A stretch of DNA of 64,000 nucleotides from Nanobdellota archaeon (GCA_023133595.1 JAGLWF010000001.1:33693-97692), one strand, 5' to 3'; counted from the stretch's first letter, positions 789 through 35,273 are shown. Numbers and translations: made by a program. The notes: a model not told the origin generated them from the letters alone.

Positions 789-2825
789 TTAACTGCACTT
801 CTTAATTTGATTATTGATCAATGTATTATCAGGACATCGAGAATATTGCTCAAATGCCTCCTGGAACGCTTCCTCGCATCTCTGCGGCGGATCTGCTGCC
901 GAACAAACATTAAAATCTGTGACAAACAATGTCAATTTAGAATAACAGTCAGTATCGTATGATTCACAGCCTTCTAGATATTCCTGTCCTAGGTAATGTA
1001 ATAGCAATCTTAATCTCAGAGCCTCGTTCTTTAACACCAAAGTCTCTGAAGGTATCCTGAATTTTTCAATATAATATTCATTCCCAAATTCTTTCTTGAG
1101 TTTTGTATTGAGATTGCTGACTCTTGTCAATGCAAGTGCAAGATTTGTATGCTTGATAAACTCATTCAATGTCTTGCCGAACAGAGTTCCGCTGAAAAAA
1201 GAGATCTGACTGAAAGGAACGAAGTCCTGCTGTTTCTCAAGACCAAATGTAGGAGATAGTTGTTCATACAATTGATCAGAGGCGAATTGCATTTTCTTGA
1301 TATGCTCCTGAAGATCTTTTGTTCTGTCCAGGAAATCTACTTTTCCAACCTTGTTTGCGTTTATTGCTGCAAACTCGTCGACAGCGATCTTTGCCTGGTT
1401 TCTTAACATAGATGTCTGCAGACTCAATCTTATCATACGGTTAGTATTCTCAGCCATGTCATCAAATACTTTTCCAGATACAAAATTAAAAAAAGCTCCA
1501 AACCCAGTAACCCTAGGAATGTAATAATTCTTATAGGACTGGAGTTGAGATTCGTACTGGGTTTGAAGACTCAAAAACATGCTTGGCAATTTGCCTTTTA
1601 CTATTGGATATTTCCATGTCAATTTATGCATATGCTCTTCGATCATCAATGGTTCTGTCGCCTCGATAAGCTCTGCTTTTGTTTCCAGAGCACGTTCATA
1701 AATATTGGAAGCAAATATTGTGCCGGAGATGCCTGCGATAATCAGGATAATTATCATCAGGAAGATGCTGATAAAGATGCCATACATGATTGGATCCCAG
1801 GTTATGCTCCTACGCGGTTTCAGGAGTAATGTCAAAGGATAGGCAGCAGCGAAAAAATTAATCTTTCCTGTTGTACGACCGATAAGAGAGGCACCGATCC
1901 TGATGATGACCGGAAATGTCAGTGCTAATATTATGAAATAAATTATTATCAGGTACATGACAGACATATGCTTGAAAAATGGTAGCAGGACATGCGACAT
2001 GAACAACAGTATCAAGACAAGAAGAGTTACAAAGTAAGTCAGTAGGATCATCCAGCAATTGTAGAGTGCAAAGAAGTTGTGCTTCCTATCGGTTTTGCTG
2101 AAATAGATCCAAGCCTTAAGAAATACAAGGCCAGCAAAGATCAATAAGATATAGGATAGATAAAGTGACAGAAGAAAAAATCCTATGAAAACCAGGATTG
2201 CTAACACTTCATTCTTAGTTTTGTAGGAAATCCCGATCAGATAATTAAATACCAAAAAACCAACGATGAAAATCAATGAAGAATACACTGCTCCTGCAAA
2301 AGCTCCGATAAGAGTGAGGAGAGCAATGAACAGAACCATATGAACATCTCCAGACAATCGCAAGAATTTCATTATATCAAACGGATTCTTGTAGTTCAGC
2401 AATGGTTTGTGCTGGTACGATGGAAGAACATGTTCATGAAAAAACAGCCTGAATAATAATGTGAAAAAGACTGCCACCAGTAACGGGATAACAATTGAGA
2501 TCACAAGATAGAGCAGGATGTTTGGGACTGCTTGCGGTGCTGAATAGATAAAGAATACAAAAGTTATTATTCCAGTCAGAAGACCTACCAAAACTTCGTA
2601 TTTCAAGGAATCTTTTTCTGACAGATGATGCCTTGCACAGGAATATCCCAGGAATGCTGCGATCACTGCAGGATAGATAATTAATATTGAGAAAAATATT
2701 GCATTTGTCATGTCTGGAAGTGATGCGAACTTAAAGAAGAAAAGCAAAACTATAGGCACTAATATCAGTAGCAACAGTAACGGTGCACTCAATACTGAGA
2801 TATGTGAAATCTCTTGATTTTCCAT
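789..2825 (-). CDS. Polytopic membrane protein (>=10 predicted TM helices) with a ~290-aa Cys-containing C-terminal soluble domain; possible secretion/pilus platform partner (FlaJ/TadC-like role not established)
   Basis: 678-aa ORF, first ~390 aa strongly hydrophobic. GAGGT-type RBS ahead of the ATG at 2825. It lies 14 nt downstream of the FlaI/VirB11-family ATPase gene in the same operon. No T2SS-F motif could be recognised by eye. Confidence 0.5.
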   Translation of the reverse strand: MENQEISHISVLSAPLLLLLILVPIVLLFFFKFASLPDMTNAIFFSILIIYPAVIAAFLGYSCARHHLSEKDSLKYEVLVGLLTGIITFVFFIYSAPQAVPNILLYLVISIVIPLLVAVFFTLLFRLFFHEHVLPSYQHKPLLNYKNPFDIMKFLRLSGDVHMVLFIALLTLIGAFAGAVYSSLIFIVGFLVFNYLIGISYKTKNEVLAILVFIGFFLLSLYLSYILLIFAGLVFLKAWIYFSKTDRKHNFFALYNCWMILLTYFVTLLVLILLFMSHVLLPFFKHMSVMYLIIIYFIILALTFPVIIRIGASLIGRTTGKINFFAAAYPLTLLLKPRRSITWDPIMYGIFISIFLMIIILIIAGISGTIFASNIYERALETKAELIEATEPLMIEEHMHKLTWKYPIVKGKLPSMFLSLQTQYESQLQSYKNYYIPRVTGFGAFFNFVSGKVFDDMAENTNRMIRLSLQTSMLRNQAKIAVDEFAAINANKVGKVDFLDRTKDLQEHIKKMQFASDQLYEQLSPTFGLEKQQDFVPFSQISFFSGTLFGKTLNEFIKHTNLALALTRVSNLNTKLKKEFGNEYYIEKFRIPSETLVLKNEALRLRLLLHYLGQEYLEGCESYDTDCYSKLTLFVTDFNVCSAADPPQRCEEAFQEAFEQYSRCPDNTLINNQIKKCS

Positions 2826-2839
2826 CTACCAACCTCTTT

Positions 2840-5800
2840 TTATTTTTTAACTGATTCTTTCTTGACTTCTTTTTTCAGCCAGCGTTCCCATTCATTGTAG
2901 ATCATCTTACTGTCAAGATCACCGACTTCCTCCAATACATTTTCTGAGATAATGTGAAACATATCATTGCATTTTATGACAAATGGAGCTTCTAGTAATT
3001 CGGGATTTCCTGCTTTCAGGGAATAATCCAAGTTAGCCTTCCGGATCTTTGCTCTTAGCATGATATTATCCCAGACAGCATCCCATTTTCCTGCCCACTG
3101 CTTGACATTTGCTGCAATGCTCTTCAAGACATCACTGTCTCCATTCATCAGATCTGGACTTGGTTCTAATTCATCTGTTATTGGATTATAACGAAGAAGA
3201 TCAACAAAACCCTGCTCTCTGTGCGGATCCTCGACCCAATCCTTTCTTACTTCTGTGATGCCTGTCATACGACGCCACCAATGCAGACCGTCAGGACTTC
3301 TGACAGGAGTATTCATAAGTATGATATCAGTTGCTTTGAATGATGTGCGCGGAACTCCGATATCATTGACAACACGATCAAACACACCGTAGGGACTGTC
3401 AGCGTGTATTGTGCCTGCAACAACATTTGCAGCTGCACCGACACGCATTGCTTCGTATAATGCCAGCGCTTCTGTATTGTGGAGTAAAATTCCTCCAAAA
3501 CCACCAATAAACCTCTGAGTGGACTTTACACTTAAATCATAAACATATTCTGGTTTTTTAAGATTAATAACCTCAATAGATTTTACTTTATCAACAAAAA
3601 ACTCACCATGAGCAAAATTATAAATCTCATCACTACATTTAACTTCTTCTGTAATTTTTTTAAGATAATCTTTTGAACAGCATTTTGTTCTTCTTAAATG
3701 CCTATACTTCCTTGGCAATTTTAAATGTTTTTCTAACTCTTTCGGATTAAATGATACTGAATCATCTTTACTATGTGAAAAAGATTTTGTAAATATAGAA
3801 GGCCTCTTATGTGTAAATCCAATATTTTTTAAGAAGAATTCAACATATTTTCTTTGCTTTATTTCAGCAATATATATTTTCTTATGACTTTTATTTATTT
3901 TGTTTCTGCTATGGATTCTACATACAATTCCTACTGATAAAAGTGCATAAGCGACATCTTCAATTAACTTTTTTGATGTTGAGAAATATTGGATCATGGT
4001 TCCAGCGCTTTTCGTTATACTAATAGAGCCATCACCGCTATACATTCCCCTTAATAGAGCACAGATCTTCTTTTCATTTAGGCCATACACAAATTCGGGG
4101 ATTCTTTTATGAAAAGATGTTTTCCCGCAATCTAACTTAAGTAATAAATCAGCAAGAGGTTTACATGTGACAAACATTTGTATTGAAGTCCCATAACCCT
4201 TTATTTTTCTCTTCGAAACAGATAATCCTAATTCTTTTTCACAAATTTGAGTTATATCTTTAATTATTTCTGGTTTTGAATTTGTAATCTGAATTTTGCT
4301 GTTAGTGATGTTACCTTCAGCGAGATAATATCCAATAAATCTTAAAACACTTTCATTTATTGGGAACTTCGTGGGAATACTATTTGAGGTTCCTCTTTTA
4401 ATTCTTAGATTCTCCAGATTAAACTTTATCTTTGCTTTAATCATTAATTTGAGAAAAGCTTTAATAGGAATCCTCGTTTTTTGAGTAGATAACAGATATC
4501 TGTAGATATCAGAAATCCCACAGATCTCGCTACATTTTTTCCAATTAAGTTTTTTGACTGCCTTACGAATATATGGTTCTGCATTTTCCAAACGATAGTC
4601 TTCTTTGAATACTCTTAACAAATCGATAGAACCAATATCATTAAAACCATTTGGCAATTTAGAAGGAATTATTATTGGATCTCCTACTTTTAATTGATTG
4701 GTGTTTATAGCAGCAATTTTAAAATCAACATGAGTAAATACACTATGGTCAGGAGTAACAGTAACTTCTCTTCCTGTTTTAGTAGTAAGTTTGATTAATT
4801 GTTTACGTTTAGGATGCTTTACAAAAGCAGTTAGTTTTTTTAATTTCATTTTTTGTTCCTCACCAAATGTAGGGACAAAAAATGATTTTAAATTCTTATT
4901 TTCTAAGTCTTTTATAGGCATCCGTTTAGTCAATCCATTTTCAACAATTACAACTTCCTCACTACCCTTAAGAGAACTTCTGACCTCACCTATAATCAAT
5001 GAAGAATCTCCCATCCGCAGTGTCGCACGGATTCCATCAGTTGCACTGACTCCTGATTCTTTTGTTGCTGCGAGTGCAGAAGAAACTTTCATAGATTGTA
5101 AATTGAATCCCAATTCACGCAGTGCCTGCGTCGGAAGTTCCAGTGTATCTTCAATCGTGATAATACGATAACGCCGCATGATGTCAACCATTACTGACGC
5201 AAGTACACTTGACTTTCCACTGCTCCTTGTACCTGCGACAAGCATTGTCTTTGTGCCGTCGATAAGAAAACTGATTATTCCTGCTGCAATAGGATTGAAC
5301 ATCTTGTATTTCATGAATAATGGGAGTGTCCACGGTTTATTTCTGTGCCTTCTGAATGCAAACGCAAGACCTGTTGGATTAAGTGGAGGCGAGATCGCAG
5401 AAACTCTTGTACGCGCAGCTGGCAGTGTAAGTTCTGTATCAAGGATAGGGTTTGCTTCATCCAATGGCCTGCCGCTTATCAGACGAAGTTTTGTTGCCCA
5501 ACTTTCTGACTCTGTCGGTGTCGGATAAATGTTTGAGAAACAATTTCCAAAGTCCTGGTGCACTATAAACATCGGAATCCTTCCAAGTGGAGAATTTAAT
5601 GTTACGTCCTGTATCTTTTCATCCTCCATCAGGACCTCGATCAGGCCGAATCCGATTGTGTAACGCATCAATATCTTTGCCAGCAACAAGATATCCTTAT
5701 TCTTCATCTTAATATCTTTTGTTTCTGCCAGTTCTGCCAACAAATCAACGCCAATGTTCATGAAAACTTCGCGCATCCGTTCTGGATCAATGAATTCAGA

Positions 5801-6628
5801 TTTTGTCGGCTTATGCTCTGCCATGATGTTTCTTGCAGTGTCGAGCAATTCGTACTGTTCTTCTGTGAGCCTGAACTCAGGCGGCATGAGATGATAAAGA
5901 TATTGAACATCCTCGGGAAGTTTGAAAACATTCACTTCTGTATCGCCGATAGAATAAGTGTCAAGGATCTCTCCACCGTCTGGATATTGTGCCCGCAGTT
6001 TTGTATACATGAAATCCGGTTTGATCACTGGTCTGAAGATCAGACGATATAGATCACGGGAATCAACAGAATATCCAGGGATTTGCGGAAGTACTGCTTT
6101 GATCATCCGCGTGCGTTCCAATAATTCTTTTACATAACTTAGGATCGCAATATATTTCTCTTCATTCATCAATCTTTTTGTGTCTGTGATTGTTTCTTTT
6201 GCTATCCTCGCCTCCCGTACCAATCGCTTTAGCATCACATAAGCTCCGATCGGATCCTGTTTTAGCCTGACAAATACCAAGTTATTGATCAGATCCTGTT
6301 TCTGCGCATACCATGTGCGGTATTCAGGAATCTTTCCTATCTCGAACAAAGATAGCTGATGCTTGTTCTGCGTGAGATGCGCATAGAGATTAGCAATCTC
6401 CATCAGGATGAGAACCTGGTTCATCTCATATTCAAAATCACGTTTTTGATAGTACACAATCTTTGTTACTTCTTTTACCTGCAATAGAATATCAATTGTC
6501 CTGCTCATCAGGAATGGATCATCTTCTAGGATTGGGATTCGTGAATAGGTCTCGCAATATATACGTAGAATGCGCTCTTCTCCTTCTCTTATTAGCTCAA
6601 ACTCCCAGTCCTTCTTCTGTGGCATCAT
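2840..6628 (-). CDS. FlaI/VirB11/GspE-family secretion or type IV pilus ATPase with a long N-terminal extension and an inserted ~501-aa intein (LAGLIDADG homing endonuclease type)
   Basis: Walker A GTRSSGKSS; PilT/GspE Asp box RIITIEDTLEL; Walker-B-proximal LIIGEVR; His box GTIHADS. Between GEVR and TEALALYEAMRVG lies a segment with intein block B (TPDH), two LAGLIDADG-like motifs (GYYLAEGNIT and LLRGMYSGDGSI), and a terminal ILLHN followed by Thr. Start moved to the MMPQKK ATG at 6628, which has AAAAAGGGGTGG upstream; the ORF-track N-terminus reads through the promoter. Confidence 0.8.
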   Translation of the reverse strand: MMPQKKDWEFELIREGEERILRIYCETYSRIPILEDDPFLMSRTIDILLQVKEVTKIVYYQKRDFEYEMNQVLILMEIANLYAHLTQNKHQLSLFEIGKIPEYRTWYAQKQDLINNLVFVRLKQDPIGAYVMLKRLVREARIAKETITDTKRLMNEEKYIAILSYVKELLERTRMIKAVLPQIPGYSVDSRDLYRLIFRPVIKPDFMYTKLRAQYPDGGEILDTYSIGDTEVNVFKLPEDVQYLYHLMPPEFRLTEEQYELLDTARNIMAEHKPTKSEFIDPERMREVFMNIGVDLLAELAETKDIKMKNKDILLLAKILMRYTIGFGLIEVLMEDEKIQDVTLNSPLGRIPMFIVHQDFGNCFSNIYPTPTESESWATKLRLISGRPLDEANPILDTELTLPAARTRVSAISPPLNPTGLAFAFRRHRNKPWTLPLFMKYKMFNPIAAGIISFLIDGTKTMLVAGTRSSGKSSVLASVMVDIMRRYRIITIEDTLELPTQALRELGFNLQSMKVSSALAATKESGVSATDGIRATLRMGDSSLIIGEVRSSLKGSEEVVIVENGLTKRMPIKDLENKNLKSFFVPTFGEEQKMKLKKLTAFVKHPKRKQLIKLTTKTGREVTVTPDHSVFTHVDFKIAAINTNQLKVGDPIIIPSKLPNGFNDIGSIDLLRVFKEDYRLENAEPYIRKAVKKLNWKKCSEICGISDIYRYLLSTQKTRIPIKAFLKLMIKAKIKFNLENLRIKRGTSNSIPTKFPINESVLRFIGYYLAEGNITNSKIQITNSKPEIIKDITQICEKELGLSVSKRKIKGYGTSIQMFVTCKPLADLLLKLDCGKTSFHKRIPEFVYGLNEKKICALLRGMYSGDGSISITKSAGTMIQYFSTSKKLIEDVAYALLSVGIVCRIHSRNKINKSHKKIYIAEIKQRKYVEFFLKNIGFTHKRPSIFTKSFSHSKDDSVSFNPKELEKHLKLPRKYRHLRRTKCCSKDYLKKITEEVKCSDEIYNFAHGEFFVDKVKSIEVINLKKPEYVYDLSVKSTQRFIGGFGGILLHNTEALALYEAMRVGAAANVVAGTIHADSPYGVFDRVVNDIGVPRTSFKATDIILMNTPVRSPDGLHWWRRMTGITEVRKDWVEDPHREQGFVDLLRYNPITDELEPSPDLMNGDSDVLKSIAANVKQWAGKWDAVWDNIMLRAKIRKANLDYSLKAGNPELLEAPFVIKCNDMFHIISENVLEEVGDLDSKMIYNEWERWLKKEVKKESVKK
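3476..4978 (-). other. Intein (Ser1 ... HN, with Thr at +1) inside the secretion ATPase; contains a LAGLIDADG homing endonuclease domain
   Basis: Boundaries found by residue counting. The extein junction is GEVR|S...ILLHN|TEALALYEAM, which leaves a contiguous GEVRTEALALYEAM. This resembles the FlaI GEIRGEEAYVLFQAM region. Confidence 0.65.
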
Positions 6629-6706
6629 CCACCCCTTTTTATATACTGAAATGAAGCATATATTTAAATATTTCCGACATTTCAGTTTCATAAAAGAGGG
6701 AAGATT
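6629..6706. promoter_or_regulatory. Divergent promoter region with palindromic TATA-like boxes (atatttaaatattt / tatatac)
   Basis: AT-rich intergenic region between the minus-strand ATPase start (6628) and the plus-strand ORF start (6707). TATA-like elements sit about 25-30 nt from both ATGs. Confidence 0.4.
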
Positions 6707-7174
6707 ATGTCTCCATTGTTCAAAAAAACACCAAAAACCGCAGATACTGCAAGAGGTCCTGAAAAGGCAGAATCCAGGTTCAAAAACATATTTGCTGGAA
6801 AAGAAAAAATGCCTGCAATAGGTCATGGTACAGAAACTCTCTTAGGTGACATAGGCAGGCGGTTGCGTGTTCTTGAAGATCGATACAACAGTTTGAGAAA
6901 ACAATTCCAGTTCACAGACCAGATCATGCTGAAAAATAAAAAAGAAATCAATACTGAGATAAAAGCAATGGACCTCACACTGTCCGAGATAAACAAAGAG
7001 ATTATCGAGCTAAAGGATAAAGCTGCAAGAATGTCCTCTGAACTGAAAGGCTGTGCAAGATTATCAGAACTCAAGATTATTGAAAAATACATTGATCTAT
7101 GGAAACCTGTGAATTTCCTTACGAGAGATCAGGCTATCAAGATGATCAAGGAATACGCAAAAAAGAATAAGTAA
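6707..7174 (+). CDS. Hypothetical coiled-coil protein
   Basis: 155-aa ORF with AGAGGGAAG ahead of the ATG. Heptad-like, K/E-rich sequence. Confidence 0.5.
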   Translation: MSPLFKKTPKTADTARGPEKAESRFKNIFAGKEKMPAIGHGTETLLGDIGRRLRVLEDRYNSLRKQFQFTDQIMLKNKKEINTEIKAMDLTLSEINKEIIELKDKAARMSSELKGCARLSELKIIEKYIDLWKPVNFLTRDQAIKMIKEYAKKNK

Positions 7175-7927: not shown

Positions 7928-8554
7928 TTATTTTTTCTCTGGTTTCTTGTATATCAATGCACGTATTGCTATTGTGATGATTAATGCAAATGCTCCCAAT
8001 CCTAGAATCTTAGGATGGAACAATACTTTCTGCACTTCCTGCTGATACGCTGCCTGTGCATCTGCTGGAATTCCTATTGTATCTGCAGGCGTGACTCCTG
8101 GACCAAGTGTCGGTGCCTCTGTCACTGCCGGAGCAGTAGTTGTCGCGCCAGCTCCTGCCTGCGGAATCAGGCTCGGACCAAATAATGTGCCAATCGCTGC
8201 AAATATGATAAGGATGATCGACACAAGGATAAGATAATGCACCAGACTCATCTTGCTCATATACTCTGTGATTGCAGTCTCTGGAACTCCAGAGAACCTG
8301 AAAGCCATCATTCCGAACAAGATAAAAATGAACATCACAACAAACCACGGAGAAACATAGAACAATATGGCTGTCACCTGCTTACTCAACAATGTAAGGC
8401 AAGCAACTGCAAACGCGATTATCGCATTCACTCCCTGATCATCTGAGATCAACTTAAATTTATCCAATAGCGCATAAACTATCAAGAACACCAATAAGAA
8501 AATAAATATCGGTGATGCAAACTGAAGTAATCCAATATCAAGGAATGTTGCCAT
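7928..8554 (-). CDS. Integral membrane protein, member of a four-copy tandem paralogous family (most divergent copy; Ala/Thr/Pro-rich insert)
   Basis: 208 aa with about 4 hydrophobic segments. The other three copies share the xLPFLLxF motif at TM1; this copy has only a related SPIFIFLL. Head-to-tail with the next copy; its start overlaps that copy's stop. Confidence 0.6.
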   Translation of the reverse strand: MATFLDIGLLQFASPIFIFLLVFLIVYALLDKFKLISDDQGVNAIIAFAVACLTLLSKQVTAILFYVSPWFVVMFIFILFGMMAFRFSGVPETAITEYMSKMSLVHYLILVSIILIIFAAIGTLFGPSLIPQAGAGATTTAPAVTEAPTLGPGVTPADTIGIPADAQAAYQQEVQKVLFHPKILGLGAFALIITIAIRALIYKKPEKK

Positions 8555-8560
8555 TTTTTA

Positions 8561-9187
8561 TCAGCTAGGTGGTTCCCAGAATTTTGCCCAATCTTTCTTC
8601 CGTTGCTCTTTACGGTCCTTTGAGGTTCCTTCTGGTTCATGTATTATGAAATATATTATGATTCCAAATATCAATATGATCAGCAGCGCGGCCTGATTCT
8701 GCGGTGTGTTGATAAATCTTAATGGTCCAGGCAGATCCTTGAAAAGGCCGGCTGAATTACCAAAGATATAACCTACAACTATGATCGAGCCCCACAAGAT
8801 CCATGATTTGAATGGAAATTCTGTCCATGTTGGTGGTGCGAATATTCCAATCATCAGCATTACCATCAGGATTCCGACAATCCATAGAGAAATTGATGGC
8901 AGTGAATTATTGATTATTTCAACAACATCTGGATAGCCTGTCAATGCTCCGCCTAATCTGCCATCTGTAAAATCAGCAGTTCCATATACAACATGCGGGA
9001 TTATGATCAATAAAGCAATGACCAGAGAAATCACAACATTATACTTTTTGCCTTCCTTGCCCTTGCCAAGAATCTCAGTCTTTTGCAGTGCTGCAAAGAA
9101 TATTACGAATATCAAAAGAAATGGTAAGATAACATCTAAAGCACCTAAGCTTTCAAAGCTTCTTATTGCATCTTCAAAAACAGCCAT
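8561..9187 (-). CDS. Integral membrane protein, paralogous family member 2
   Basis: 208 aa. AGGTGAT RBS. Conserved blocks LDVILPFLLIF, DGRLGGA and NNSLPSIS(L/V)W shared with the 9270-9890 copy. Confidence 0.65.
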   Translation of the reverse strand: MAVFEDAIRSFESLGALDVILPFLLIFVIFFAALQKTEILGKGKEGKKYNVVISLVIALLIIIPHVVYGTADFTDGRLGGALTGYPDVVEIINNSLPSISLWIVGILMVMLMIGIFAPPTWTEFPFKSWILWGSIIVVGYIFGNSAGLFKDLPGPLRFINTPQNQAALLIILIFGIIIYFIIHEPEGTSKDRKEQRKKDWAKFWEPPS

Positions 9188-9269: not shown

Positions 9270-9890
9270 TTAACCTTCGCCTTCAGCTTTGGCTTTGGGT
9301 TTACCGTCGCCTTCTCCACCGCGTATGATAAAGAATATCACAATACCAAACACTAGTATTATCAGCAGCGCAGCCTGGTTGGCAGGTGTCTGCAGGAATC
9401 TTAATGCAGGTGGCAATTGCCTGAACAAGCCAGCTGAACTTCCAAAGATGTAGCCAACAACCACAACTGATACAAGCACTATGAGCCAGCTCCAACTTCC
9501 TAATTGATCTTTTATCGCATCTGGCATGAACAATCCTGTCAGAAGCATCAGCATAAGTATTGCAACAACCCATACAGAGATTGATGGCAATGAATTATTG
9601 AAGATCTCAACAACATCTGGCAGTCCCATGAATGCTCCGCCCAATCTTCCATCTGTCGGGTCAACTGTGCCAAATGCAACGTGCGGAATCACAATAAGCA
9701 ATCCAATAACCAAAGCAACTGTTACATCAAATCCTTTGTTTGGATTGGTATCAGCTTGTTTATGCAATATATTTGTCTTTCTCAATGCTGCATATATAAT
9801 CACAAAAACAAGCAGGAACGGAAGAACAACATCTGTAATACCCATCTGGTCCAGATTTCTTATAGCGTCAGCAAATACTCCTTGTGCCAT
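9270..9890 (-). CDS. Integral membrane protein, paralogous family member 3
   Basis: Start set at the ATG (MAQGV...) with AAGGAG 9 nt upstream. The ORF-track start is a TTG. About 55-60% identity by eye to the 8561-9187 copy. Confidence 0.65.
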   Translation of the reverse strand: MAQGVFADAIRNLDQMGITDVVLPFLLVFVIIYAALRKTNILHKQADTNPNKGFDVTVALVIGLLIVIPHVAFGTVDPTDGRLGGAFMGLPDVVEIFNNSLPSISVWVVAILMLMLLTGLFMPDAIKDQLGSWSWLIVLVSVVVVGYIFGSSAGLFRQLPPALRFLQTPANQAALLIILVFGIVIFFIIRGGEGDGKPKAKAEGEG

Positions 9891-9949
9891 CAATATCAAC
9901 TCCTTTTTGTTTTGAATCGTTTATGGATTTATAAATCTTCTTATTTTTT

Positions 9950-10378: not shown

Positions 10379-10945
10379 CTAATCTTTATTTTGATCTGAT
10401 GGTTTGTCACCGCGAACAATTATACCGATGAATATTGCTATGCCTATCAGGAACAGGATTGTTGCGATCCAGTCTTCTGACCAGTGCGCTGAGAGAAACG
10501 TGAATAATTTCTGCAGCCATCCTAGTGCATGCAATATTATGAGCAAGATAACAATGAAAAGTCCTGGAAGAAATATATAGACGAACCATCTGTGTCCTGC
10601 TTCACCCTTTTTTGTAAACTTCAGTATTCCTCCTTCTCCAACAAACAAGCTGATTGTTATCAGGAAGAATGCGACAACAATAATCACAACCACAAAGTTT
10701 GCAATTGCTTCATTGATGATTGCAACAATCTGTGTTGCACCGACAAAGATTATTGCTACAACAAAAGCAACAATCGCGTTCAGACTTCGTCTTGGCTCTC
10801 CTCTGTATTCCTCGCCCAAGATCATAGTCTTGTCAAGGATTGCGTACAATAATGCAAACACAAGAAGAAACGGAAGTACTACATCATAGAATCCAAGTCT
10901 GCGCATGAATTCAACAACACCACCAAATACAGTCTGTTCTACCAT
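10379..10945 (-). CDS. Integral membrane protein, paralogous family member 4
   Basis: Start moved to an internal ATG (MVEQTVFGGVVEFMRRLGFYDVVLPFLL) by analogy with the paralog N-termini. GAAGAGG RBS and catataaaact TATA upstream. Confidence 0.55.
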   Translation of the reverse strand: MVEQTVFGGVVEFMRRLGFYDVVLPFLLVFALLYAILDKTMILGEEYRGEPRRSLNAIVAFVVAIIFVGATQIVAIINEAIANFVVVIIVVAFFLITISLFVGEGGILKFTKKGEAGHRWFVYIFLPGLFIVILLIILHALGWLQKLFTFLSAHWSEDWIATILFLIGIAIFIGIIVRGDKPSDQNKD

Positions 10946-11034
10946 CCTCTTCAGTTTTATATGCGTACTTTGGTTTATAAATGTTTTGGTTGCTAAAGCC
11001 AAGATTTATATACGAAACAGAGATAACATTGTCT

Positions 11035-32963: not shown

Positions 32964-35273
32964 ATGGCAGACGAGAAGCAAAAAAAAGAGATAAAGCTGA
33001 AAGTTACTGAAGCTGTACAGGATGATGTAAATAAAGGTATAGTCAGAATTGATTCTAATTTTATGCAGCAGATTGATGTCAAGCCAGGGGATATTGTAGA
33101 GATAGAAGGCGGAAGAAAGGCTGCAGGCATTGTTGGAAGGGCATATCCAGGGGACATTGGCTTCAATATTATCAGGACAGATTCTCTTATCAGGAGAAAT
33201 GCAAAGACTGGTATTGGCGAGATGGTCACTATCAGAAAAGCAGATGTTCTGGAAGCACAGAAGATTACAATCGCACCTGCGCGAAAAGATGTACGGATAA
33301 GTGCTTCGCCTGTTGTTTTCAAGCGCGGACTTTTAGGTCGTGTTGTTCGAAGAGGAGATCTTGTATCATTAGGCGGTGCAATCAACAGAAAGACAACAAT
33401 GGCTGATAATCCTTATTTTGATGATATATTTTCAAGCATGTTTGATGATAACTTTGGATTCGGAGGGTTTGCTCTGGGAAGTATCAAGTTCATGGTCACA
33501 GATGTAAAACCATCAAAAGCTTTTCTGATTGTCACTGAGAATACAGAGATCGATTTCAGACCAGAAGCAGTTGAGATCGGAGATGATGATGAAGAAAAGA
33601 CAATCGAGATTGCATACGAAGACATTGGCGGACTTGATGAAGAAATCAAAAAGATACGAGAGATGGTAGAACTGCCATTAAAACATCCAGAAATTTTCCA
33701 GAGATTAGGAATCGAACCGCCGAAAGGAGTCTTGCTCCATGGTCCTCCTGGAACTGGAAAGACTTTGCTGGCTAAAGCTGTTGCGAACGAGACAAACAGC
33801 AACTTCATATTGATCAATGGTCCAGAGATCATGGGAAAATTCTACGGACAAAGTGAAGAAAACCTAAGAAAGAAGTTTGCAGACGCAGACAAGCATGCAC
33901 CTTCGATCATATTCATTGACGAGATTGATGCGATCGCGCCAAAAAGAGAGGAAGTGCACGGAGAAGTGGAGAGAAGAGTTGTTGCTCAACTGCTCGCGTC
34001 TATGGACGGTCTGAAGAGCAGAGGCAAAGTTGTTGTCATTGCTGCAAGCAATATGCCAAATTCACTTGATCCTGCTTTGAGAAGGCCAGGAAGATTTGAT
34101 CGTGAGATCGAGATAGGTGTTCCAAAGGCAAGTGGAAGATTGAAGATTCTTAAGATTCATACACGAAACATGCCGCTCGATAAAAAAGTTGATCTTAAAA
34201 AGATAGCAGATATAACACACGGTTTTGTCGGAGCAGATCTGGCTGCGCTAGCTAAAGAAGCTGCAATGATTGTTCTTAGAGAAATATTGCCAGATCTAAA
34301 ATTAGATGAGGAAGAACCGATCCCAAGAGAAATTCTGGAAAAGATGACGATAAAACAAAGTGATTTCATTGACGCGCTTAAAGTTGTGCGTCCATCTGCA
34401 CTGAGAGAAGTACTGATCGAGATTCCAGATGTTTCATGGGATGATATTGGTGGACTGGATCATGTGAAGCAGGAACTGAAAGAAGCTGTTGAATGGCCTT
34501 TGAAATTTTCAGAATCATTCAGACGTCTCGGAATAAAACCGCCAAAAGGTGTTCTGATCTACGGTGCGCCTGGAACTGGAAAGACTTTGCTTGCAAAAGC
34601 AGTAGCTCACGAATCAGAAGCTAATTTCATACTAGTCAAAGGGCCTTCAATGTTATCCAAGTGGGTTGGAGAATCTGAAAAGGGTGTACGAAAAATATTC
34701 GACAAAGCCAGACAGTCAGCACCATGCATCATATTCTTTGACGAGATTGACAGTATTGCCCCAAAACGCGGTCAGAGCAGTGATAGCCAAGTAACTGAAA
34801 GAGTTGTCAACACATTGTTGACAGAGATGGATGGACTAGAAGAATTACATGATATTGTTATCATAGCAGCGACAAACAGACCAGACATCCTAGATACTGC
34901 ACTATTACGGCCTGGAAGATTCGACAGGATCATAATGGCAGATGTCCCAGATCTTGAGACACGAGAAAATATCTTTGCAGTGCATACAAAAAGTATGCCT
35001 CTAAAGGTTGTGGATATTAAGGAATTGGCAAAAAATACAGAAGGCTATGTTGGAGCTGATATTGAAGCAGTCTGCAGAGAAGCTGCAATGCTTGCTTTGC
35101 GTGAGGATATAAAAGCAACAAAAGTCACAAAGAAACATTTTGAAGAAGCCATTCAAAAAGTCAATCCAAGTGCAACAAAAGATATCCAAGCAGCGTATTC
35201 CAAGATGATGAATAAGTTTAAGCAAGCTACTGCAAAAGAAATGCAGGAAGAAAAACCTAGTTATTTAGGATAA
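32964..35273 (+). CDS. cdc48: Cdc48/VCP/p97-like AAA+ ATPase with two AAA domains
   Basis: N-domain followed by two Walker A sites ([13 protein letters not shown] and [13 protein letters not shown]), Walker B DEID, and SRH regions. Confidence 0.9.

Follow-up and report, generated by a model that had tools for sequence, protein, structure and literature searches.

The Mja KlbA intein (MJ0781; PDB 2jmz/2jnq) is a 168-aa mini-intein whose host belongs to the broad VirB11/KlbA-like secretion ATPase superfamily, and it follows the class 2 pathway, in which the intein starts with Ala1 and Cys+1 attacks the N-terminal junction directly (PMC2807308). In a published survey, 21 inteins were counted in archaeal VirB11/COG0630 proteins (Novikova et al. 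2016; PMC4760082, Table 3), and beyond this survey and the KlbA work we found no literature that connects either these ATPases or DPANN archaea with inteins. Larger inteins, such as PI-PkoII (Pko Pol-2, PDB 2cw7), TliVMA (7qss), and PI-PfuI (1dq3), which interrupt a DNA polymerase, a V-ATPase, and an RNR, respectively, carry class-1 splicing residues and consist of a HINT domain into which a two-motif LAGLIDADG endonuclease, with additional regions for DNA recognition, is inserted. Among the ATPases, the solved structures most relevant here are those of afGspE (PDB 2oap) and FlaI (PDB 4ii7/4ihq), with their common two-domain secretion-ATPase fold and four conserved motifs.

We analyzed a 64,000-nucleotide stretch of DNA from a Nanobdellota archaeon (GCA_023133595.1 JAGLWF010000001.1:33693-97692; hereafter, the window), in which one minus-strand gene (table 1) encodes a 762-aa ATPase of the T2SSE superfamily together with a 500-aa intein. 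All of the motifs quoted in an initial annotation of this DNA lie in a single unbroken ORF (2840..6826), which extends too far on its 5' side. We placed the true start at ATG 6628 or the adjoining ATG 6625, because a GGGGTGG sequence sits just upstream and because the NCBI copy and the homologues begin with MP. The NCBI copy, deposited independently from a 188-kb contig, is 100% identical, begins at ATG 6625, and is 1261 aa long. The deposited copy carries only the name 'TadA', and its intein is not mentioned.

Table 1. Positions of the intein-containing ATPase gene, its parts, and the neighboring membrane protein gene in the window
Feature	Position	Strand	Description
Whole precursor gene	2840..6628	-	1262 aa, 145.1 kDa; stop codon 2840-2842
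N-extein	4976..6628	-	551 aa; clade-specific N-terminal extension of ~200 aa, ATPase N-terminal domain, Walker A, Asp box, Walker B; ends ...IIGEVRS
Walker A / P-loop GTRSSGKSS	5207-5233	-	Extein residues 466-474
Asp box IITIEDTLEL	5135-5164	-	Extein residues 489-498
Walker B strand SLIIGEVRS	4976-5002	-	Extein residues 543-551; catalytic Glu; final residue is the -1 Ser
Intein	3476..4975	-	500 aa, 57.4 kDa, Ser1 to Asn500; HINT splicing domain and double-motif LAGLIDADG homing endonuclease
Intein block A SLKGSEEVVIV	4943..4975	-	Ser1 nucleophile
Intein block B VTVTPDHSVF	4736..4765	-	T74, H77
First LAGLIDADG motif LRFIGYYLAEGN	4310..4345	-	Acidic E220 (YYLAE220G)
FHKRIPEF	4091-4114	-	Conserved K290
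Second LAGLIDADG motif ICALLRGMYSGDGS	4025..4066	-	Acidic D315 (YSGD315G)
Intein blocks F and G, PEYVYDLSV ... FGGILLHN	3476..3553	-	D480, H499, N500
C-extein	2843..3475	-	211 aa; opens with Thr+1, TEALALYEAM at 3446-3475; helical C-terminal extension
His box AGTIHADS	3395-3418	-	Precursor residues 1071-1078
Polytopic membrane protein	789..2825	-	678 aa; downstream, co-oriented with the ATPase gene

The initial annotation had read this gene as a FlaI/VirB11-type ATPase split after GEVR (Walker B) by a LAGLIDADG intein, and this reading was borne out by the location of the motifs, by Pfam matches too strong to be due to chance, and by the continuity of the GspE/FlaI-superfamily host once the segment was removed. 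The TPDH block B and the two LAGLIDADG-like motifs that it named were found in the segment, as was the terminal ILLHN, which ends at 3476 and is followed by Thr+1. In Pfam searches with the precursor, Intein_splicing (E=3e-20), LAGLIDADG_3 (E=3e-19), and T2SSE (E=8.5e-10) all passed their curated cut-offs, and the excised segment alone gave 2.6e-21 and 6.5e-20 for the first two. The corresponding scores were 73-76.5 bits for PF14890 (cut-off 35.8) and 69.5-71.6 for PF14528 (22.5), the latter over two stretches. The NCBIfam models for the N- and C-terminal parts of inteins likewise exceeded their cut-offs (TIGR01445, 42 vs 24.5; TIGR01443, 17 vs 15.6).

The boundaries were fixed by intein-free homologues. 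The homologue P0002 (87% identical, 762 aa) reads IIGEVRS↓TEALALYEAM (arrows mark the insertion point), which is exactly the predicted ligated junction, and the DNA of its empty site is near-identical to the flanks in the window. When residues 618-1117 of the ORF were removed, a 762-aa protein remained that was collinear with P0002, and its alignments with P0002 and with afGspE 2oap ran without a gap over the splice junction. The window reads GEVR-S-S-LKG, and Ser was found at -1 in 119/119 intein-free homologues; because these keep one Ser (GEVRS↓TEAL), the first Ser belongs to the extein and the intein has 500 aa. The initial annotation had proposed 501 aa (3476-4978), a boundary that would leave a one-residue gap; of the junction it proposed, GEVR-TEALALYEAM, the C-terminal side was correct and the N-terminal side lacked this extein Ser.

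All residues expected of a class-1 intein were present: Ser1, T74-P-D-H77, D480, H499-N500, and Thr+1. In 12 alleles inserted at the same site, 41-76% identical to the intein of the window, S1, G4, H77, E220, G221, K290, G314-D315-G316, D480, H499, and N500 were invariant and T74 was nearly so. The AlphaFold model of the intein (pLDDT 90.1, pTM 0.90) found PI-PkoII 2cw7 (E=2e-29), TliVMA 7qss, PI-PfuI 1dq3, PI-SceI, and I-DmoI as its best structural matches. Residues 208-372 of the model fit the pseudo-dimeric alpha-beta-beta-alpha-beta-beta-alpha pattern, and Foldseek matched this endonuclease fold to I-DmoI and I-Tsp061I (TMt 0.65-0.71). Sequence and predicted structure thus confirmed the segment as a class-1 (canonical) intein bearing a double-motif LAGLIDADG homing endonuclease, with splicing and cleavage as predicted activities. 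None of the ten largest other ORFs of the window, including those for CDC48, AspRS, and GatB, contained a further intein.

Compared with the described systems, the intein shares its architecture with PI-PkoII, TliVMA, and PI-PfuI (fold matches at E=2e-29 to 1e-19, TM 0.63-0.71), and 2cw7 was also its best sequence match in the PDB (E=1.9e-18); however, the sequence identity to these three is only 15-19%, the window's intein uses Ser1 and Thr+1, and both the hosts and the insertion sites differ. The KlbA intein showed weak similarity in the HINT domain (E=5.5e-7 over block B), but the Ser1/Thr+1 chemistry, the length of 500 aa, and the endonuclease set the window's intein apart from that class 2 mini-intein. 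Allelism with KlbA was likewise rejected: 2jmz shares only the -1 Gly with the flanks of the GEVRG/EA or FQAMAT/GH site, and its own flanks (…G↓ALAY…N↓(C)S…) aligned neither upstream with IVGEVR nor downstream with EAYVLF, so the KlbA insertion site differs from that of the window. Related inteins also occur at the FQGMA↓SGH site, which is ~13 residues further downstream in the host, between the FQGMA helix and the conserved Gly-His behind it. These are paralogous to the window's intein (30-40% identical over residues 1-380) and have the SxxG[DN]EE N-terminus and the endonuclease type in common with it. Their hosts belong to the same ATPase superfamily but to another subfamily of ~550-aa, FlaI-like proteins, with Ser or Thr at +1 followed by GH.

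In the host, the four motifs (Walker A, Asp box, Walker B, and His box) follow one another in the expected order, and they were invariant in 50 homologues (in particular G466, T467, R468, S469, G471, K472, and S474 of Walker A, and E493, D494, and E497 of the Asp box). Removal of the intein improved the T2SSE match to 2.3e-15, and the match then ran across the junction; the spliced protein scored 56.6 bits against PF00437 (cut-off 24.9). Its closest solved relatives were afGspE and FlaI (phmmer E=1e-27 and 1.5e-14; Foldseek E=2e-20 and 9e-19, respectively), which supports its assignment, by sequence and fold, as a probable DPANN-clade hexameric motor ATPase of the secretion/pilus type within the T2SSE superfamily. 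To the common fold the host adds a helical C-terminal extension and a folded N-terminal extension (pLDDT 82-93). Because residue 203 aligns with residue 15 of afGspE, and residue 323 with residue 123 of FlaI, the N-terminal extension measures ~200 aa and not the ~300 aa initially estimated; nor is it atypical as had been supposed, since it was conserved in 119/119 homologues examined, all of 748-792 aa.

The host is not a FlaI orthologue: it scored 94.4 bits against the NCBIfam equivalog NF058587 (cut-off 550), and the neighboring ORFs match no family; thus, it should be filed as 'FlaI-like fold'. The TadA/CpaF Flp-pilus assignment implied by the NCBI name was rejected as well (TIGR03819, 88.9 bits vs a cut-off of 373), and the 678-aa membrane protein encoded downstream has no T2SSF match. 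No Pfam or NCBIfam model matched this protein or any of four 208-aa membrane proteins encoded in tandem, and no archaellum or pilus family was recognized among the neighboring genes with either collection. The 678-aa protein had only three homologues in a 5.8-billion-protein database; the order of the ATPase gene and this gene was repeated beside an intein-free homologue, and it is possibly a partner of the ATPase.

The insertion separates Ser551 from Thr552 (numbered as in the mature protein). In the host model it falls between a strand (542-548) and a helix (551-563), in the turn that joins the Walker B beta-strand (SLIIGEV) to the next helix (STEALALYEAMR). The site had been described as P-loop-proximal; it is ~78 residues past the P-loop in sequence, directly behind Walker B and three residues past the catalytic Glu. 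We consider it highly probable that the gene encodes the precursor of a DPANN secretion ATPase with a class-1 intein that splices, homes, and has spread patchily. The gene would be translated as a 145-kDa precursor, in which an N-to-O acyl shift at Ser1 would generate an ester open to attack by Thr+1; cyclisation of Asn500, with His499 assisting, and an O-to-N shift would then join the exteins into an active 87.7-kDa ATPase, with STEALALYEAMR as the ligated junction peptide, and free the 57.4-kDa intein. The predicted cleavage site of the freed intein in intein-free alleles is about GGTGAGGTnAGAAGT↓ACAGAAGC, and recombinational repair would copy the intein into the cut allele, which would account for its patchy distribution in DPANN archaea. 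That the intein splices, cleaves DNA, and is mobile today is read here from intact residues and allele distributions.

Among the best 79 GTDB loci, 62 carried an insertion at the identical point, GEVR[S/G]↓S…HN↓[T/S]EA, and Thr or Ser occupied +1 in all 62. All of these loci are DPANN according to their titles or likely mislabelled, and they represent at least 62 species-level genomes. The inteins begin with S[LIV][RKP]G and end with LHN, are 483-528 aa long (14 alleles measured end to end), are 41-77% identical to the window's intein, and share its catalytic residues; they are alleles of it, with no difference in kind. In addition, related ATPases are interrupted by two to five full-length inteins of homing-endonuclease size, at about six sites. 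The initial annotation had regarded a full homing-endonuclease intein in this ATPase as notable, a view that does not survive the number of DPANN genomes sharing it, the presence of up to five in sister ATPases, and the 21 inteins already counted in the family.

The similarity of the inteins and that of their hosts were discordant. The nearest relative of the intein was 77% identical, and the N-extein of its host only 57%; over ~15 hosts, the inteins were 69-77% identical and the N-exteins only 44-61%. By comparison, no intein interrupted the hosts most similar to that of the window (87% and 72-73% identical). That intein similarity exceeds host similarity, with the closest hosts empty, fits horizontal spread among DPANN archaea by a presumably active homing endonuclease. 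Conservation of the intein above the extein could partly reflect strong purifying selection and not transfer; with identities of 76% for amino acids and 77% for nucleotides, a dN/dS comparison would suffer from saturation of the synonymous sites. No stop codon was found in any of the 38 same-site inteins checked. At +1, the intein-free homologues most often had Lys (61/119) or Thr (43/119). The intein was low in GC (0.295 vs 0.425) and in GC3 (0.21 vs about 0.40). An equal GC offset was observed in two other same-site alleles split at the junctions, one of them inside a 55% GC gene, and intein GC was below extein GC in 37/38 GTDB loci, by 0.005-0.16. We therefore did not accept the low GC as proving a recent transfer; since the offset recurs across alleles, at least part of it is a property of the intein itself, a protein rich in Lys and Ile.

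Several other explanations of these observations were weighed. That the segment is an ordinary inserted domain, or an artefact of assembly or frameshift, is hardly conceivable: the sole point in its favor is the origin of the sequence in a metagenome-assembled genome, whereas the segment is in frame within the single ORF, the independent deposit is identical, the architecture recurs in at least 62 other genomes, orthologues lack precisely this segment, and both sequence and structure match inteins with homing endonucleases. It is less improbable, but still unlikely, that the intein splices while its endonuclease is no longer mobile, being a domesticated or decaying resident that is inherited vertically and repeatedly lost. 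Lineage by lineage, intein GC follows that of the host, as would be expected after long residence, and there is no obvious vector, the only relative in the viral contigs of IMG/VR being a weak one (30% identical); the Thr at +1 of intein-free homologues could also be the scar of precise loss. A decaying endonuclease gene, however, would not be expected to keep E220, D315, and K290 invariant in alleles down to 41% identity or to be free of stop codons, and vertical descent alone would hardly produce the discordance between inteins and N-exteins.

The intein might instead be kept as a post-translational switch, with conditional splicing governing activation of an attachment or pilus ATPase. The precursor should be inactive, as its Walker B region is disrupted so close to the catalytic Glu; intact copies of the allele are widespread among DPANN archaea; and other archaeal inteins, such as that of RadA, have been proposed to splice conditionally (PMC11409957). 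Nevertheless, close relatives work without the intein, so the host has no need of it, and since Ser and Thr take the place of Cys as nucleophiles at the junctions, the known redox and disulfide switches do not apply. We consider such a role quite improbable, and a splicing intein that spreads by homing remains the preferred reading.

With this reading, the window's intein is an ordinary example of a known mobile element, the same insertion being present in dozens of related public genomes, and the current understanding of inteins and of secretion ATPases is unchanged. With 62 or more alleles, a non-replicative ATPase family in DPANN archaea appears heavily colonized by inteins that move between lineages. 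A bolder proposal, which we hold only tentatively and regard as rather doubtful, is that the secretion and attachment ATPases of DPANN archaea form a major, largely undescribed intein hot spot in which the Walker-B allele is still homing between distant lineages; if so, that allele could trace DNA exchange among DPANN episymbionts or conditionally switch their machinery for attachment. For annotation, the mature protein should be recorded as 762 aa instead of 1261, and for intein catalogues and endonuclease mining the locus offers a LAGLIDADG intein of the Ser1/Thr+1 type that is well delimited and apparently intact, and for which a natural empty target site is available.

The ATPase gene lies in one unbroken minus-strand open reading frame that spans the whole region (see table), and the 66 leading codons of this frame are probably untranslated. 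Its 5' part overlaps a divergent gene; GGGGTGG stands upstream of tandem ATGs at 6628 and 6625; and MP.. is the N-terminus of the homologues and of an identical deposited protein (P0001, 1261 aa, labelled 'TadA, Nanoarchaeota archaeon MAG', on a 188-kb contig). The intein-free relative's locus, L001, has a 156-aa gene in the position of the divergent frame.

Features of the ATPase locus, and the CDC48 gene, in window positions
Feature	Position	Strand	Remarks
Polytopic membrane protein	789-2825	minus	678 aa; directly downstream of ATPase; Cys-containing C-terminal soluble part
Open reading frame	2840-6826	minus	1328 codons
ATPase precursor gene	2840-6628	minus	1262 aa
Codon +1	3473-3475	minus	extein residue 552
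Intein	3476-4975	minus	500 aa
Leading codons	6629-6826	minus	probably untranslated
Divergent frame	6707-7174	plus	155 aa, coiled-coil-like
Tandem predicted membrane protein	7928-8554	minus	~208 aa; adjoins ATPase locus
Tandem predicted membrane protein	8561-9187	minus	~208 aa; adjoins ATPase locus
Tandem predicted membrane protein	9270-9899	minus	~208 aa; adjoins ATPase locus
Tandem predicted membrane protein	10379-11002	minus	~208 aa; adjoins ATPase locus
CDC48	32964-35273		769 aa; no intein

The junction reads ...IIGEVR-S-S-LKGSEEVV...GGILLHN-TEALALYEAM..., and the sequence alone permits either Ser as residue 1. Because the intein-free homologue P0002 (762 aa, 87% identical) reads IIGEVRS↓TEALALYEAM (empty site ATCATTGGTGAGGTAAGAAGT↓ACAGAAGCGCTTGCATTGTAC; arrows mark insertion points or intein boundaries), because Ser occupies -1 in all 119 intein-free homologues examined, and because afGspE (2oap: IVGEVRGREAQTLFQAM) aligns without a gap only when one Ser is left in the extein, the intein is 500 aa, with Ser at -1, Ser1, His499-Asn500 and Thr+1. 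The 501-aa segment of the initial annotation was thus one codon too long; its quoted motifs were all found in place. Removal of the intein yielded a product of 762 aa, exactly the length of P0002, and improved the Pfam T2SSE match from 8.5e-10 on the unspliced frame (already over the curated threshold) to 2.3e-15 at residues 406-598, now across the junction. Computed masses were 145.1 kDa for the precursor, 87.7 kDa for the spliced host and 57.4 kDa for the intein, and the predicted ligated tryptic peptide is STEALALYEAMR. At the +1 position, Lys was present in 61 and Thr in 43 of the 119 intein-free homologues, and occupied alleles always had Thr or Ser; Lys+1 would be incompatible with splicing, and some of these alleles may be less suitable as homing targets too.

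The open reading frame matched Pfam Intein_splicing (3e-20) and, in two stretches, LAGLIDADG_3 (3e-19), both above curated thresholds, as well as the NCBIfam N- and C-terminal intein models. Splicing blocks A, B (T74-x-x-H77), F (D480) and G (H499-N500) are intact. The acidic residue of each LAGLIDADG motif is retained (E220, D315), as is a conserved Lys290. Across 12 aligned same-site alleles (41-76% identity to the window's intein), the catalytic residues were invariant, T74 nearly so. An AlphaFold model built from 25 sequences (pLDDT 90.1, pTM 0.90) had PI-PkoII as its best PDB fold match (E=2e-29), with TliVMA, PI-PfuI and PI-SceI also among the best and the free-standing LAGLIDADG enzymes I-DmoI and I-Tsp061I ranking after these intein endonucleases; PI-PkoII also led the PDB sequence matches (1.9e-18). 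We conclude that a DPANN-clade secretion ATPase carries, at its Walker B site, a class-1 LAGLIDADG intein that is real, precisely delimited and apparently functional.

The closest solved relative of the host is the archaeal secretion ATPase afGspE (1e-27), followed by CpaF/TadA (5e-20) and FlaI (1.5e-14), and a fold search returned the same order. The NCBIfam FlaI, TadA, TrbB and VirB11 models gave sub-threshold matches; the host was rejected as an orthologue of FlaI (94 bits vs. a cut-off of 550) and of TadA (89 vs. 373). Walker A, Asp box, Walker B and His box showed no variation across 50 homologues. The N-terminal extension, initially put at ~300 aa and considered atypical, measures ~200 aa relative to afGspE/FlaI and is conserved in 119/119 homologues examined (748-792 aa long); it is a clade trait, not peculiar to this gene, and its confident model shows a small alpha/beta unit and, after it, a helical bundle (pLDDT 82-93). 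In the predicted structure, the insertion point falls in the turn that joins Walker B strand 542-548 to the following helix, 551-563; in sequence this is ~78 residues past the P-loop. Conserved active-site spots are typical intein positions.

The Mja KlbA intein (2jmz) is a 168-aa mini-intein, in contrast to the 500 aa found here. Some Pyrococcus KlbA inteins may be ~520 aa, in which case the initial description of all KlbA inteins as mini-inteins would also be inaccurate. Allelism with the KlbA intein was rejected on both site and mechanistic class: of the GEVRG flank, only the Gly at -1 recurs in the 2jmz construct, neither the EAYVLF flank nor either FQAMAT/GH flank aligns with it, and KlbA inteins belong to class 2 (Ala1, Cys+1; PMC2807308).

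With only the intein as query, a word-indexed search gave 43 relatives, ~30 of them with flanks GEVR[S/G]↓S…HN↓[T/S]EA and labelled Nanoarchaeota, Aenigmarchaeota or Micrarchaeota. When 1.84 billion cluster representatives were scanned exhaustively with HMMER, 92 matches fell below 1e-30. The top ones were secretion ATPases of 1170-2011 aa with two to five inteins each, at sites that include the P-loop (GSGK↓T), IED↓T, GEVRx↓xEA and FQGMA↓SGH. At least six insertion sites are in use among the homologous or FlaI-like DPANN secretion ATPases that hold two to five inteins per gene (P0164-P0166, P0168-P0175; P0170, for example, has 2011 aa). The GTDB species representatives contain 215 stretches that code for intein relatives, all sites together; among the best 79 loci, 62 are exactly at the window's site, 12 at FQGMA↓SGH and 5 in CDC48. 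Same-site titles were Woesearchaeota, Nanoarchaeota, Aenigmatarchaeota, Micrarchaeota and Diapherotrites; the Pacearchaeota and Iainarchaeum titles (one each) belong to other sites. The loci include SCGC AAA011-G17 (a 2013 single-cell genome) and GW2011_AR18. The intein is thus one allele of a widespread intein. A full-length endonuclease intein, initially considered notable here, is not unusual in this ATPase family, because same-site and multi-site relatives are widespread and a published survey recorded 21 inteins in archaeal VirB11/COG0630 and five in CpaF (Novikova et al. 2016, PMC4760082, Table 3). The host family is heavily colonised and already on record as an intein host; only how far inteins have colonised the secretion ATPases of DPANN archaea, and been exchanged among them, is of mild interest.

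Nine GTDB loci titled 'uncultured Methanosarcinales archaeon' (L004, L005, L010, L014, L015, L020, L031, L053, L081) carry a DPANN-type ATPase with the intein (66-77% identity), which suggests that these TPA assemblies are taxonomically mislabelled. The nearest intein relatives outside secretion ATPases are in CDC48/VCP AAA ATPases of DPANN genomes (L076, L079-L082). A predicted 496-aa protein (P0148) has an SMC-like P-loop N-terminus, a FlaI-like C-terminus and fragments of inteins; it is probably a chimera that arose at intein sequences by misassembly or recombination.

The distribution is patchy: the intein is absent from the host's nearest relatives (87% and 72-73% identical), and inteins 69-77% identical to the window's occupy hosts with N-exteins just 44-61% identical (intein vs. 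N-extein: 74% vs. 44% in L007, 72% vs. 45% in L009 and 69% vs. 44% in L018). Against the same-site allele P0099, protein and DNA identities are 76% and 77% for the intein, and 62% and 68% for the exteins. Stop codons occurred in none of 38 same-site inteins examined, and at the empty site the DNA of P0002 hardly differs from the flanks of the window's intein. Patchiness, intein/host mismatch, intact frames and the near-identical empty site agree with repeated horizontal gains through homing. A search for a viral carrier found none. The intein is Lys- and Ile-rich and low in GC (0.295 vs. 0.425; GC3 0.21 vs. ~0.40); this dip was rejected as independent evidence of acquisition, since two other junction-split alleles have the same deficit, and in 37 of 38 GTDB loci intein GC lies below that of the exteins by 0.005-0.16.

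Neither the 678-aa membrane protein nor the four tandem 208-aa proteins had a Pfam or NCBIfam family match. The former is syntenic, L001 having the same arrangement with a 713-aa protein. Among 5.8 billion database proteins it had only three homologues; it may be a rapidly evolving ATPase partner. Two of the tandem proteins are 57% identical over 203 aa, and most other pairs have only a common N-terminal module of ~60 aa (36-38% identity).
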